DNA of 64,000 bases, from the sequence record OR999189.1. The stretch is one strand, 5' to 3'. Positions within the stretch are counted from its first letter, which is position 1, and every line of letters starts with the position of its first letter. A program made the translations under genes and the position numbers. Below are positions 1,666-51,104 of this stretch, piece by piece. Source of the stretch: Enterobacteria phage P922. A model generated the notes under the pieces. It was not told the origin of the DNA and did not search any database. It worked only from the letters and a program-made list of their open reading frames with translations.

Positions 1666-2102
1666 AAACATTATCAGCTGGTATTATCTTTATGACAGAA
1701 GATAAAGATTTATTTATGGGTCGGGTTACTGGTTCTCGTAAGCCTGGAATGATGGCACATCGCTGGGATATTCCAAAGGGCCGTGTAGAAAATTCTGATT
1801 TAAGCGCATTAGATGCAGCACGAAGAGAATGTTTAGAAGAGACTGGTTTTAACAATTATAATCCAGATCTTCTAGAAGACCTAGGTGTATTTAAATATTC
1901 TAGTAATAAAGACCTACAGTTATTTTATTATACGATTCCAGTAGAGCATGAGATGTTTAGAAATTGCTATTGCGAGTCTTATTTTGAAAATAAAGATGGC
2001 GTTATGATTCCAGAGATGGATGCTTTTGCTCTTATTCCTCGTACCCAGTGGCAATATGTGATGGGCCCTTCACTTTACCGAATAATGAACAGCCTCTTTT
2101 AA
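1662..2102 (+). CDS. nudE: Nudix hydrolase (T4 NudE / e.1-like)
   Basis: Nudix box RRECLEETGF; AGGAA RBS before ATG 1662 (ATGA overlap with upstream stop); immediately upstream of lysozyme as in T4. Confidence 0.85.
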   Translation: MKTLSAGIIFMTEDKDLFMGRVTGSRKPGMMAHRWDIPKGRVENSDLSALDAARRECLEETGFNNYNPDLLEDLGVFKYSSNKDLQLFYYTIPVEHEMFRNCYCESYFENKDGVMIPEMDAFALIPRTQWQYVMGPSLYRIMNSLF

Positions 2103-2905
<803 letters not shown>

Positions 2906-17019: not shown

Positions 17020-17910
17020 ATGTCAGTAGTAATTAATAATGTCAATGCAGTAATTAAATCTTTAGTTAATAAAAAAATGATGAATGAATGGACTGTACTT
17101 CGTCGTGGAGAGCCAGATAAATTTTTTCATAGATTTAACCCAACTTTGGATTTGAATGTTATTGATAAAGATGTTCATGCCGAAATTTTAGATAAGTTTA
17201 AAGTTGATATTGGATTTGGATTAGAAAAACATTTGCAGCGAACAAGCGGATCTGGAATGAGTTTATCTAATCGCATTATGAAAGCCCTTAATAAAATTGG
17301 AGCATTGTCTCGTATTAACGCGAGTGAAATCCTTCGTAATTATAATAAAGGATATGACCTTTATGGTCGACTGATGCCAAAATTATCATTCGATCAAATG
17401 ATAGCGGATTTGTGGGAAAATCAAAGACGATTATTAGCATTAGGCGCTCGATTAGCTAAAGGTTTAGATAAACAAATGATTTTTAAGACCAATAATACAG
17501 AAGACCTTAAATGCTTTAAATTTAGTATTCGTGGAGATGATTATTACATCAGAGCTCACTCTACAGATTATGCTAATATGGGGCATCATCTCTGTTTAGC
17601 TTTTGAAGTTTTAAAAGAAGCTGGAACATTAGAATATACGTCTGGTGCTAAATGCCCTATTGGTTCAAGTTGTATTTTAATTTATCGCCCGGATGAATCC
17701 AGTTCAACTAAATTGCCTACAAAACCTGTACCGGTTCGTAGTAACGAAAAACATTCTGAACAAATTGATTATTTTAATAAGCAGATTGAAGAGCTGAATA
17801 TTTCTATTCAACAATATGATGATGAAATTTTCAGACTATCTGGATTGAGTAGTAAAGCTAAATCTGAGCGTGAAAAGTTAATTAAAATTGTTGATTTACT
17901 TAAATCTTAA
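17020..17910 (+). CDS. coiled-coil-tailed protein, tandem array member 1
   Basis: ORF track 16984..17910, ATG 17020 with GAGGAAAAT RBS; C-terminal ~40 aa heptad-like helix. Confidence 0.55.
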   Translation: MSVVINNVNAVIKSLVNKKMMNEWTVLRRGEPDKFFHRFNPTLDLNVIDKDVHAEILDKFKVDIGFGLEKHLQRTSGSGMSLSNRIMKALNKIGALSRINASEILRNYNKGYDLYGRLMPKLSFDQMIADLWENQRRLLALGARLAKGLDKQMIFKTNNTEDLKCFKFSIRGDDYYIRAHSTDYANMGHHLCLAFEVLKEAGTLEYTSGAKCPIGSSCILIYRPDESSSTKLPTKPVPVRSNEKHSEQIDYFNKQIEELNISIQQYDDEIFRLSGLSSKAKSEREKLIKIVDLLKS

Positions 17911-17918
17911 GGAACACC

Positions 17919-18947
17919 ATGAAAACTCGTTCTCAAATTGAAGATATGGTTCGTAATGCCAGTTATACTCGTGATGTTATGACATTTTTGTGTGAAAATA
18001 ATTTAGACCCTGATAAAGTTAATCGTGTTATTCATCACTTTAAGTATACGAATAGCAGTGAATGGGTGCGTAATTTTAGTAAAGCGGGATATATTACACA
18101 AATGACTGCTCGTGAGCAACTCACCGATTTCTGTAAAACTATTGATTATAAAAATCCTTTATTTGTTCAAGGCGTTGGTCAAAGTAAGGTCGATTTATCA
18201 TCTGGATTTTTCAATCCAAATCATTATCGTATTGAATGGAGATTTATTGCTCTGTTCCGTAGACAATTAAAGCAAATTTTATCAACTGCGAGTCGATTAA
18301 AAGGTTCTGATATTAACTTAAAGAACCTGAAATTTGATGGTTATACTCTTCAGATGGAAGTAAGACCATTAAAAGAAAATAATAGAACTGCACGAATTAG
18401 CTTTAAACCTAATACAAAAAATTCTCTTTCAATTTGCGAATGCCTTAAATCGCAGTTGACAGAAGCATTTAAGTATATGGATGTTGTTGCCGCTGTTCAG
18501 TCTAAGATTTTACCTCATTTTGAGCGAAATTGGGAACATACAACAACGTATGAACTTGATATGATCGTTTCATTTAAATACGATTTTTTGAGAAAGGACG
18601 AAGTCACGCAAGAGAAAAAGCAAGAAGTGCAAGATAACTTAAATTTAAATTTATCTAATTACTCATCAAACGATCCTAAATTTTGGATGTATAGTTCAGG
18701 TAATAAGGATGCATGGAAATTCAATAAAGTGAATTTTCTTCCTGTTGAAAATCCGAGTCTTAAACCTGTTGAAAAATGGCATGCAGATGCGATTGAGAAG
18801 TCTATCAAGGCAGTAGATGATGAACTCGTTAAAGCAACTAATGAAGTGCTAGAAGCTGAAAAGATGCTAGAAAAAGCTCAAGAAAAAGTCAAAAATCTTA
18901 CGAAGCAACGTTCTAAACTGAACAATGCACTAAATGCACTAAACTAG
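17919..18947 (+). CDS. coiled-coil-tailed protein, tandem array member 2
   Basis: Starts MKTRSQIEDMVRN; C-terminal VDDELVKATNEVLEAEKMLEKAQEKVKNLTKQRSKLNNALNALN. Confidence 0.55.
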   Translation: MKTRSQIEDMVRNASYTRDVMTFLCENNLDPDKVNRVIHHFKYTNSSEWVRNFSKAGYITQMTAREQLTDFCKTIDYKNPLFVQGVGQSKVDLSSGFFNPNHYRIEWRFIALFRRQLKQILSTASRLKGSDINLKNLKFDGYTLQMEVRPLKENNRTARISFKPNTKNSLSICECLKSQLTEAFKYMDVVAAVQSKILPHFERNWEHTTTYELDMIVSFKYDFLRKDEVTQEKKQEVQDNLNLNLSNYSSNDPKFWMYSSGNKDAWKFNKVNFLPVENPSLKPVEKWHADAIEKSIKAVDDELVKATNEVLEAEKMLEKAQEKVKNLTKQRSKLNNALNALN

Positions 18948-48200: not shown

Positions 48201-48494
48201 ATGAAAAAATTTGTTTTTGCTGCAATTTTTGCTTTGGCTTCTTGTACTGCTCAGCCTGCTATGGCAGGTTATGATAAAGATTTGTGCGAATGGTCTATGA
48301 CTGCAGATCAGACTGAGGTTGAAACTCAGATTGAAGCAGATATTATGAATATCGTTGAGCGTGATCGCCCTGAAATGAAAGCTGAAGTACAAAAACAGCT
48401 TAAATCTGGTGGTGTAATGCAGTATAATTATGTTCTGTATTGCGATAAAAACTTCAATAATAAAAATATCATCGCTGAAGTGGTAGGTGAATAA
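48201..48494 (+). CDS. sp: Spackle-like periplasmic protein (61.3 position)
   Basis: 97 aa with signal peptide MKKFVFAAIFALASCTAQPAMA; size and position match T4 Sp. Confidence 0.65.
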   Translation: MKKFVFAAIFALASCTAQPAMAGYDKDLCEWSMTADQTEVETQIEADIMNIVERDRPEMKAEVQKQLKSGGVMQYNYVLYCDKNFNNKNIIAEVVGE

Positions 48495-49120
48495 TGCTTT
48501 ATCAAATGCACAAGTGCAAAGACACGTACAAATATAAAGGTGCCCAGTGTTATATCATTAATCGTGAAAACGCAGGTCCAGGTCATTCGCATCAATCGCG
48601 GTTTGTATTCGTTAAAAACAACGAAATTATAGCAGTTGCTAATTACATGCTTGCGACTAGTGATGTTAATCCGGTGCCTTTCACATATTATAATCTAATG
48701 GACTTGGCGTACGATTATAATTGGTTTAATCATGATAATTTGGCTCATATTGAAGGCGTAGGATTTGACATCTCTTATTCTAGTTACTCGTTGTGTCCTA
48801 TGAGCCGAGCTCATAAAGAGCCTGAATATTTTTCATTTCGTCGGCGTGTAGACTTTGAACGCAGCACAGAGTATATCGGTGGAATCTTTGTTAAAGATAA
48901 TCGAATTACTCGCATTATTTATCCTTTGGGCTGTGGTCAAAAAGATATTGATGTTGATTTAGACTTTACTGAAAACATCATTAATCATATTGCTTCTGTG
49001 TATTTTGATATTGATCATAAAATTGTAATATGTGGATATGAATTACCATCAGAAAAACAGTCTAAAGTGAATGTTTCTATTGATGACCAAATTTTTAATG
49101 CTTTTATGAATAGAGGTTAA
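48494..49120 (+). CDS. hypothetical protein (61.2 position)
   Basis: ORF track; 208 aa. Confidence 0.55.
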   Translation: MLYQMHKCKDTYKYKGAQCYIINRENAGPGHSHQSRFVFVKNNEIIAVANYMLATSDVNPVPFTYYNLMDLAYDYNWFNHDNLAHIEGVGFDISYSSYSLCPMSRAHKEPEYFSFRRRVDFERSTEYIGGIFVKDNRITRIIYPLGCGQKDIDVDLDFTENIINHIASVYFDIDHKIVICGYELPSEKQSKVNVSIDDQIFNAFMNRG

Positions 49121-49288: not shown

Positions 49289-50317
49289 ATGTCATCAATA
49301 CCTTGGATTGATAATGAGTTTGCATATCGTGCGTTAGCTCATTTACCTAAATTCACACAAGTAAATAATAGTTCAACTTTTAAATTACGGTTTAGATGCC
49401 CTGTTTGTGGAGATTCAAAAACCGATCAAAATAAAGCCCGTGGATGGTATTATGGTGATAACAATGAAGGAAATATTCACTGTTATAACTGTAACTATCA
49501 TGCGCCAATCGGAATATATTTAAAGGAGTTTGAACCTGATTTATATCGTGAGTATATCTTTGAAATAAGAAAAGAAAAAGGTAAAAGTCGTCCAGTAGAA
49601 AAACCTAAAGAACTTCCTAAACAACCTGAGAAGAAAATAATTAAATCTCTTCCGTCATGCATTAGATTAGATAAACTGGCGGAAGACCATCCAATTATAA
49701 AATACGTAAAAGCTCGCTGTATTCCAAAGGATAAATGGAAATATCTTTGGTTTACAACCGAATGGCCTAAATTGGTTAATAGTATAGCACCGGGAACATA
49801 TAAAAAGGAAATATCTGAGCCTCGTCTTGTTATTCCAATTTATAATGCTAATGGAAAAGCTGAGTCTTTTCAAGGACGTGCATTAAAGAAAGATGCTCCT
49901 CAAAAATATATCACCATCAAAGCTTATCCTGAGGCAACAAAAATCTATGGTGTTGAACGAGTTAAAGATGGTGATGTATATGTTTTAGAAGGACCTATAG
50001 ATTCACTTTTTATTGAAAATGGTATAGCTATTACAGGTGGTCAATTAGACCTAGAAATTGTTCCATTTAAAGATAGACGTGTGTGGGTTTTAGATAATGA
50101 ACCTCGTCATCCTGATACTATTAAACGAATGACTAAATTAGTTGATGCAGGAGAAAGGGTTATGTTTTGGGACAAATCTCCCTGGAAATCAAAAGATGTT
50201 AATGATATGATTAGAAAGGAAGGTGCAACCCCTGAACAAATTATGGAATATATGAAAAATAATATTGCGCAGGGGTTGATGGCTAAAATGCGGCTATCTA
50301 AATATGCTAAGATTTAA
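49289..50317 (+). CDS. 61: DNA primase gp61
   Basis: 342 aa; N-terminal zinc ribbon CPVCGDS...CYNCNYH. Confidence 0.93.
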   Translation: MSSIPWIDNEFAYRALAHLPKFTQVNNSSTFKLRFRCPVCGDSKTDQNKARGWYYGDNNEGNIHCYNCNYHAPIGIYLKEFEPDLYREYIFEIRKEKGKSRPVEKPKELPKQPEKKIIKSLPSCIRLDKLAEDHPIIKYVKARCIPKDKWKYLWFTTEWPKLVNSIAPGTYKKEISEPRLVIPIYNANGKAESFQGRALKKDAPQKYITIKAYPEATKIYGVERVKDGDVYVLEGPIDSLFIENGIAITGGQLDLEIVPFKDRRVWVLDNEPRHPDTIKRMTKLVDAGERVMFWDKSPWKSKDVNDMIRKEGATPEQIMEYMKNNIAQGLMAKMRLSKYAKI

Positions 50318-50514
50318 ATTAACCCAACTAAAGCAAATGCTAAATCTACGAATGTATCGAGAGTAATTACTGGAATATTAACGCCATGAGCAATAGCAAT
50401 TGGTGATAAAACAAAATTCCAGAGTAAAATTCCTATCATAGCAGAAATAGTAAAAGCTATACGTTTTTTATTACCTTTTATGGCATTAACAAGTGCCATT
50501 AATTTTTGTACCAT
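50314..50514 (-). CDS. small hydrophobic membrane protein on the opposite strand
   Basis: Only minus-strand ORF lying in an intergenic gap; GGAGG 4 nt upstream of ATG on the minus strand; two hydrophobic segments. Confidence 0.5.
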   Translation of the reverse strand: MVQKLMALVNAIKGNKKRIAFTISAMIGILLWNFVLSPIAIAHGVNIPVITLDTFVDLAFALVGLI

Positions 50515-50524
50515 ATGTCCTCCT

Positions 50525-50551
50525 TATTGCTTTATATATTTATTGTATAAT
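50525..50551 (+). promoter_or_regulatory. candidate MotA-dependent middle promoter for gene 56
   Basis: MotA-box-like TATTGCTTTA 50525-50534, then TATAAT 50546-50551. Confidence 0.4.
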
Positions 50552-50585
50552 TAATCTACTAACCCATGAATTGAAAGGAAAAATA

Positions 50586-51104
50586 ATGGCTTACTTTAAT
50601 GAATGTTCGCAACTGATCGAAGGCGCTGATAAAGCTCAAAATGAATACTGGGATATTCTCGGTGACGAAAAAGACCCACTGCAAGTTATGCTTGATATGC
50701 AGAAATCTTTGCAGGTTCGTTTAGCTAAAGATAAACCTGAATATAACCGTCATCCTGATGATTTGGCTACTGCAGGTGAAGTTGTTGATTGGCTGCGTAA
50801 TCAGAAAGATTATATTGACGATGAATTCCGTGAACTTCTGACTTCTCTTGGTGGTATGAGCAATGGTGAAAAAGATGCATCTGCTGTATGGAAGCCTTGG
50901 AAGTCGCAGCATGGTGAACGTCGTGAAACTCTGATTACTGATTTGTCTCCACAAGACCAGTTGGAAATTAAATTCGAAATGATTGATATTCTTCATTTCG
51001 TTCTGAACATGTTCCAAGGTCTCGGCCTTACTGCTGAAGAAATCTTTAAACTTTATTATCTGAAGAATGCTGAAAACTTCGCTCGTCAAGACCGAGGTTA
51101 TTAA
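50586..51104 (+). CDS. 56: dCTPase/dUTPase gp56
   Basis: 172 aa beginning MAYFNECSQLIEG; ATG 50586 within track ORF 50493..51104. Confidence 0.9.
   Translation: MAYFNECSQLIEGADKAQNEYWDILGDEKDPLQVMLDMQKSLQVRLAKDKPEYNRHPDDLATAGEVVDWLRNQKDYIDDEFRELLTSLGGMSNGEKDASAVWKPWKSQHGERRETLITDLSPQDQLEIKFEMIDILHFVLNMFQGLGLTAEEIFKLYYLKNAENFARQDRGY

Follow-up and report, generated by a model that had tools for sequence, protein, structure and literature searches.

The stretch of DNA analysed here (64 kb in full, referred to below as the window) belongs to a T4-type phage (Tequatrovirus). Between its genes for DNA primase (gene 61) and dCTPase/dUTPase (gene 56), both read from the plus strand, lies a short open reading frame (ORF) on the minus strand. 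The features of this interval are as follows.

49289..50317, plus strand: gene 61 (DNA primase), convergent with the ORF
50314..50514, minus strand: small membrane protein CDS (PHROG 2024; RB32ORF030w-like), 66 aa, ATG start
50480..50509, plus strand: terminator-like hairpin ATGGCATT-AACA-AGTGCCAT then TAATTTTTGT, within ORF codons 2-12
50519..50523, minus strand: Shine-Dalgarno GGAGG, 4 nt 5' of the ATG (AAGGAGG at 50519..50525)
50525..50551, plus strand: putative gene 56 middle promoter (consensus match only)
50537..50544, minus strand: AATAAATA, predicted T4 late (gp55) promoter motif, A(-13) variant, ending 22 nt before the ATG
50586..51104, plus strand: gene 56 (dCTPase/dUTPase), divergent from the ORF

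A sequence-only reading of this DNA had described a very small membrane-type gene in reverse orientation, equipped with a ribosome-binding site and two hydrophobic segments and divergent from a candidate middle promoter of gene 56, and this description is supported. The ORF listing returned the frame with exactly the position, strand and length given in that reading. Read along the minus strand, the order is AAGGAGG (50525..50519), ACAT and then the ATG (50514..50512), which bears out the GGAGG placed 4 nt before the start codon; AAGGAGG or AAGGAGA was present in all 16 sequences compared (the window and 15 further loci). The candidate middle promoter was also found, with a MotA box, TATTGCTTTA, at 50525..50534 and a -10 element, TATAAT, at 50546..50551, separated by an 11-bp spacer. 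These elements match the published middle promoter consensus, which is wwwTGCTTtA at a distance of 12 ± 1 bp from the -10 element (PMC2988021).

The ORF is unlike the chance ORFs of the AT-rich DNA in the window. When all minus-strand, ATG-start ORFs of 50 aa or more were taken as candidates across the window (n = 62), a strong Shine-Dalgarno sequence preceded the ORF at 50314..50514 and no other. Its overlap with plus-strand ORFs of at least 90 aa amounts to 2% of its length, and its stop codon overlaps that of gene 61 in a common TTAA at 50314..50317.

Conservation and family membership of the ORF

The 1.8-kb stretch from primase to dCTPase is 98.7% identical to that of Escherichia phages ECO4 and 132. 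The sequence-only reading had stated that the gene should be doubted if the ORF was not conserved in related phages with the same flanking sequence, and the gene came through this comparison well: the flanking stretch matches 727 phage records, while the ORF protein was matched by tblastn in 692, so that the ORF is conserved in essentially all relatives with the same flanks. Identity to the window protein was at least 90% in 500 of the 692 records and below 60% (about 50%) in 189, with just three records in between, and the matches extend over the genera Tequatrovirus, Mosigvirus and Gaprivervirus. Among the matches listed that are annotated at that position, a primase lies under or adjoining the match in all except VR26. 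Genes 56 and 61 share a strand and enclose the ORF, which is read from the opposite one, in all representatives examined, namely T4, vB_SsoM_113 and WL-3 (Tequatrovirus), JK42 (Mosigvirus), VR26 and TH40 (Gaprivervirus), ten IMG/VR contigs carrying the ORF, and two divergent metagenome lineages.

The pattern of substitution was assessed in a codon alignment of 14 distinct sequences. In the ORF frame, pN/pS was 0.17 within Tequatrovirus and 0.16 within Mosigvirus, and was relaxed to 0.50 in Gaprivervirus; between genera, pS reached 0.70, which is near saturation, at a pN of 0.34. Variable sites were concentrated at third codon positions, and the ORF frame was the only one of the six frames to be free of stop codons in all three genera. 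In addition, the Gaprivervirus phage VR26 carries a second, diverged copy in tandem (gp032), which belongs to the same PHROG, matches the family profile with an hhalign probability of 94.6% (E = 7e-8) and keeps the pattern LWN..V.PIA...GV.LP. The 66-codon reverse-strand ORF is a real, conserved protein-coding gene of T4-type phages.

The gene is already catalogued as hypothetical and is not new. Residues 2-66 of the ORF protein align with positions 1-65 of the 65-position phrog_2024 profile (E = 8.2e-31), and the Mosigvirus and Gaprivervirus orthologues and the paralogue match the same profile at E ∼1e-27. PHROG 2024 is a family of unknown function located on the opposite strand between genes 61 and 56, the position found here; its members ECO4 KMC03_gp056, VR26 gp031/gp032 and JK42_00026 share family, length, position and strand with the ORF. 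Most related GenBank records label the gene 'hypothetical protein', with 'RB32ORF030w' and 'putative membrane protein' used in others. In T4 itself the ORF is intact at NC_000866.4 17738..17938 (plus strand), inside the 309-bp gap between dam and gene 61, where nothing is annotated in either NC_000866.4 or AF158101.6. No publication on the gene came up in literature searches on ribosome profiling and transcriptomes of T4, on T4 genes that lack annotation and on ORF030w.

When 1.84 billion cluster representatives were searched exhaustively with an HMMER profile, six clusters resulted, all of them the T-even family or fragments, and a word-indexed search of 5.8 billion proteins gave 33 matches, all hypothetical save one with the automated UniRef name 'Holin'. 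The family is narrow and confined to the T-even phages of E. coli and Shigella.

The relationship of the ORF to dam could be settled by comparison with T4. The sequence-only reading placed dam of T4 in the interval between genes 61 and 56 and considered it absent here; both points hold, as the T4 arrangement was confirmed and dam is missing from all 64 kb of the window. Its notion of a replaced locus does not hold, since the ORF is on the conserved primase side of the breakpoint and T4 has both the ORF and dam; a role for the ORF as a dam replacement was rejected because the two genes coexist in T4. The window and T4 are 96.5% identical from gene 61 through the ORF to 50525, their homology breaks at 50526..50545, and it resumes at 50546 in the gene 56 promoter at 76%. 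On this alignment, the variable slot is therefore between the ribosome-binding site and promoter of the ORF on one side and gene 56 on the other. The slot holds ∼20 bp in the window, a dam cassette of roughly 900 bp in T4 and a homing endonuclease gene in WL-3.

Predicted late transcription

Shortly 5' of the ORF lies a late-type promoter motif (TATAAATA-type, -13 to -6), from which transcription would be predicted to start at ∼50531 in the window, or near 17722 (plus strand) in T4. The sequence NATAAATA, with its ATAAATA core, occurs 16-25 nt 5' of the ATG in the window, T4, WL-3, JK42, VR26, TH40 and locus L017, and is kept in contexts whose upstream DNA is otherwise unrelated; in the window, the motif sits in the very segment (50526..50545) where homology with T4 breaks. 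The T4 version, GATAAATA, has G(-13) and ends 21 nt before the ATG. JK42 and L017 have the same AATAAATA as the window, at 23 nt and 25 nt, respectively, and WL-3 is as in the window. In the Gaprivervirus loci of VR26 and TH40 the motif is CATAAATA, with C(-13), at 16 nt. The exception is the divergent lineage L019, which has a one-mismatch TATTAATA 14 nt before the ATG.

Motifs of this kind are depleted approximately four-fold in the window, where 11 sites occur and shuffles lead one to expect about 40. Split by type and counted on both strands, these are five TATAAATA sites (∼10 expected) and six VATAAATA sites (∼30 expected). Each of the five plus-strand copies precedes an ORF, at 13-30 nt from its ATG; among these ORFs are soc.2 and two which, from their N-terminal sequences, we take to be lysozyme e and endonuclease VII (gene 49). 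The T4 genes soc/soc.2, e and 49, with their gp55 TATAAATA promoters, provide a close parallel, being late genes inside an early cluster, as the ORF would be, and having NATAAATA 13-30 nt before the Shine-Dalgarno sequence and ATG, as at the ORF. They differ in that the ORF is opposite to its neighbours' strand and that its candidate promoter is of the A(-13) type.

Transcripts that T4 makes in the early and middle periods all run in the same direction, and both strands are used by late transcripts alone (PMC2988020). As the ORF is antisense to genes 61 and 56, it should therefore be expressed late, and the promoter sequences point the same way: in all likelihood the gene belongs to the late class. 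The A(-13) variant is the commonest among T4 late promoters, accounting for 9 of 50 sites (PMC2988020), and it is also common in relatives of T4 (PMC1524935).

The late motif of the ORF is contained wholly within the spacer of the gene 56 middle promoter, on the other strand, and the two predicted starts are divergent and ∼27 bp apart. In T4, this middle promoter corresponds to the oriA region. Downstream of the ORF, no intrinsic terminator was found on the ORF strand within ∼4 kb, and late RNA from the ORF would therefore run antisense into gene 61. By the same arrangement of the three genes, an early transcript that extends past gene 61 to reach gene 56 would be complementary to the ORF. The hairpin on the plus strand (stem-loop at 50480..50499, then a T-run) may act as a weak terminator between these two genes. 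Its fold is also found in T4 and is absent from the Mosigvirus and Gaprivervirus loci, for which reason it was rejected as the cause of the conservation of the ORF.

Protein architecture and likely role

The Kyte-Doolittle profile of the protein (window of 15 residues) peaks at 1.5-2.1 in windows within about residues 17-42 and 47-66, which agrees with the two hydrophobic segments anticipated in the sequence-only reading. AlphaFold2, given an alignment of eight sequences, modelled helices at residues 2-14, 16-42 and 52-65 with a loop at 43-51 (mean pLDDT 76.5). Five lysine or arginine residues (K4, K13, K16, K17 and R18) fall within the N-terminal 18 residues, and the only charged residues thereafter are D53 and D57. 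The N-terminus would therefore be cytoplasmic by the positive-inside rule. The first hydrophobic segment (about 19-42) has the length needed to cross the membrane, whereas the second helix was modelled as just 14 residues (52-65). The latter appears too short for a clear second span, so that the protein could be N-in/C-out, with this helix at the interface, or could form a tight hairpin; in the case of a hairpin, N33 and D57 would be at similar depth. Across the family, which has a length of 65-66 residues, the first segment is variable in sequence and always hydrophobic. W32, N33, P38, G44 and P48 are invariant and D57 is near-invariant in the protein alignment, and the invariant residues are within or adjoining the hydrophobic segments.

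Similarity to characterised proteins was sought with several tools. There were no matches in Pfam, NCBIfam or PADLOC, permissive thresholds included, and ten of ten family members lacked a Pfam match at E ≤ 10. A profile search of PDB sequences returned insignificant membrane-helix matches only (best E = 0.18), a Foldseek comparison of the AlphaFold2 model with the PDB gave nothing below E = 8, and Rfam had no match in the region.

Taking the evidence together, we consider it likely that the ORF is a genuine T-even gene whose product is an inner-membrane protein made late and with an accessory, non-core role. The gp55-RNA polymerase would transcribe it late in infection from the ATAAATA-type promoter ∼22 nt 5' of the ATG, and translation would proceed from the strong AAGGAGG site. 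The basic N-terminus of the product would remain in the cytoplasm while residues 19-42 or so cross the membrane; the conserved turn from G44 to P48 would then lead into the short hydrophobic C-terminal helix with its conserved acidic residues D53 and D57, which may fold back into the bilayer as a hairpin or lie on the periplasmic face. W32, N33, P38, G44, P48 and D57 can be read as a surface for helix packing or partner binding, and the helix-helix contacts so formed may serve self-association or docking on a partner. The most plausible role would be in tuning envelope or lysis behaviour, or in engaging a host membrane protein. Because the family is confined to T-even phages of E. coli and Shigella, its product is probably an accessory and not a core component of lysis or assembly. 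The antiholin RI, for comparison, was found in 1115 records, including phages of Klebsiella, Enterobacter and Cronobacter, against 692 for the ORF family.

A different possibility, which we regard as rather unlikely, is that the protein is itself a permeabiliser similar to a holin, antiholin or toxin, which either oligomerises in the inner membrane late in infection, with a direct part in the timing or inhibition of lysis, or is a small toxin checked early by the antisense transcript. Class II holins and pinholins, such as S21-68 of phage 21, are proteins of ∼65-70 residues with two hydrophobic segments that are made late. The ORF protein is alike in size and in its two hydrophobic segments, has conserved intramembrane Asn and Asp residues and is predicted to be late, while the one UniRef homologue named 'Holin' and the antisense orientation of early transcripts from gene 61 to gene 56 would suit a holin and a toxin, respectively. 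However, it lacks a typical charged cytoplasmic tail, as its C-terminus is hydrophobic (..FALVGLI) with no charge after D57; it has no conserved dual-start motif, with the Mosigvirus protein beginning MFKL; the endolysin/lysozyme gene starts at 2139, about 48 kb away; and there is no Pfam holin match even at E ≤ 10. Kinship to an antiholin could be argued from a weak local similarity between the first transmembrane segment and the SAR domain of T4 RI (8/20 identities, pairwise E = 0.007), yet this resemblance is not conserved across the ORF family. The signal fades in T4 and vanishes in the other genera, where shuffled sequences reached the RI score in 244 of 2000 cases for JK42 and 388 of 2000 for VR26, and RI has the wider distribution noted above. 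We have therefore set it aside as a compositional or chance similarity.

Superinfection exclusion or immunity, put forward in the sequence-only reading, would have the protein block entry of secondary phage DNA in the manner of T4 Imm or Sp, and we think this quite improbable. The product of the ORF is probably a small protein of the inner membrane, a type of protein that the phage employs, and the ORF is in the same genomic neighbourhood as sp. Imm and Sp are likewise small envelope proteins of the same phage group, but they are early and encoded on the early strand, whereas the ORF is on the opposite strand and has a conserved late-promoter core. Its predicted late timing therefore sets it apart from these two, given that exclusion needs early promoters and expression within minutes (PMC2988020). 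Nor is there any sequence relationship, as Pfam gave no similarity to the Imm or Spackle families, although it does recognise Spackle (PF25676) in genes of related loci, and no similarity to exclusion or defence families was found; moreover, the ORF is not a dam replacement. Finally, it is scarcely tenable that the conserved element is non-coding and the ORF incidental to a terminator or to a late antisense promoter or RNA directed against the 3' end of the gene 61 message, since the unterminated late transcript into gene 61 and the hairpin on the other strand that would favour this are set against a hairpin absent outside Tequatrovirus, no Rfam match, a diverged tandem paralogue that keeps the same residues, and frame-specific substitutions (pN/pS 0.16-0.17, with the protein still recognisable at near-saturation of synonymous sites) of a kind that, on the codon alignment, a non-coding explanation cannot produce.

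The late-made, non-core membrane protein that we favour can also be taken a step further, to a reading that we find doubtful. According to this, the overlooked T4 late gene would encode a new intramembrane regulator, for example an extra component alongside holin T, RI and RIII in the network that sets lysis timing and lysis inhibition, or an inhibitor of the host whose target would be an E. coli membrane protein or a membrane-acting defence. Such a regulator would act via its invariant Trp-Asn, Pro and Asp residues, and antisense early RNA, along with the overlap of late and middle promoters, would gate its expression.

The gene is subject to purifying selection and occurs in about 700 related genomes, but is lacking from the curated T4 reference (NC_000866/AF158101). 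It has therefore not been probed by screens or omics studies that rely on the T4 annotation; CRISPRi-ART, for instance, targeted annotated CDSs only. The locus would also provide a compact example of a candidate gp55 late promoter nested, in the opposite direction, in the spacer of a MotA-dependent middle promoter. Should the protein prove to affect the timing of lysis, or a membrane target in the host, a system already under intense study would gain a further component.

The T4 copy of the ORF and the slot beside gene 56

An intact 66-aa copy of the small membrane protein ORF is present in phage T4, in the gap that separates dam from gene 61 (L001 2739..2939, equivalent to positions 17738..17938, + strand, of NC_000866.4), with AAGGAGG and GATAAATA upstream. 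It carries no annotation in either of the curated T4 records, NC_000866.4 (L001) and AF158101.6 (L023), and annotation-based T4 screens therefore left it uncovered. The stretch from the ribosome-binding site of the ORF to gene 56 is a variable slot, with the following contents:

Window, 50526..50545: about 20 bp
T4, L001 1787..2738: dam methyltransferase cassette
WL-3, L021 1527..2248: homing endonuclease gene

A homing endonuclease gene also occupies the slot in RPN226 and LH2, and the whole window lacks a dam homologue.

Gene 61 junction, paralogue and upstream locus

At its other end the ORF converges on gene 61, the two stop codons overlapping within TTAA (window 50314..50317). Any knockout of the ORF must be designed to leave the final part of gene 61 intact. 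The divergent metagenome lineages L017 and L019 have a 14-nt overlap and a 9-nt gap, respectively, at this junction. In Gaprivervirus phages the ORF and the primase gene are separated by a strongly diverged tandem paralogue of the ORF (VR26 gp032), as follows:

VR26, L004 1495..1692 and 1701..1901: tandem copies
L015, about 2734..2898: second copy, its N-terminal part apparently lost

A motif search did not find the second copy in TH40 (L005). For the first copy, pN/pS is relaxed in Gaprivervirus (0.50).

Just upstream of the primase gene, the interval between sp and 61.1 is a further small replacement locus, its gene varying among close relatives. In the window this gene is a 208-aa ORF (48494..49120, +) that matches T4 61.2 in size and position; in vB_SsoM_113 it is the 118-aa 'RB32ORF033c' (L002 1976..2332).

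Late-promoter octamer, hairpin and the gene 56 promoter

The late-promoter octamer NATAAATA is depleted approximately four-fold across the whole 64-kb window, which contains 11 sites where about 40 would be expected:

+ strand: 2105, 2118, 9484, 23166, 51140
minus strand: 1711, 5377, 12709, 48916, 50537, 61273

Each of the five copies on the + strand has the ATG of an ORF 13-30 nt downstream; these ORFs are:

2139: lysozyme e
9517: 70-aa ORF
23203: endonuclease VII
51178: soc.2

The ORFs at 2139 and 23203 are presumed to be lysozyme e and endonuclease VII from our own reading of their sequence. Only one of the six minus-strand copies, the 50537 site, has a credible ORF downstream.

Codons 2-12 of the minus-strand ORF contain a terminator-like hairpin with a trailing T-run (50480..50509, +), placed on the early strand directly ahead of the gene 56 promoter; this hairpin also occurs in T4 and is absent from Mosigvirus and Gaprivervirus. 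The late promoter motif of the ORF (50537..50544, -) falls wholly inside the gene 56 middle promoter (50525..50551), in the 11-bp spacer that separates its MotA box from its -10 element; the T4 counterpart of this gene 56 promoter region is annotated as the replication origin oriA. The predicted late promoter of the ORF and the candidate middle promoter of gene 56 could interfere with one another.
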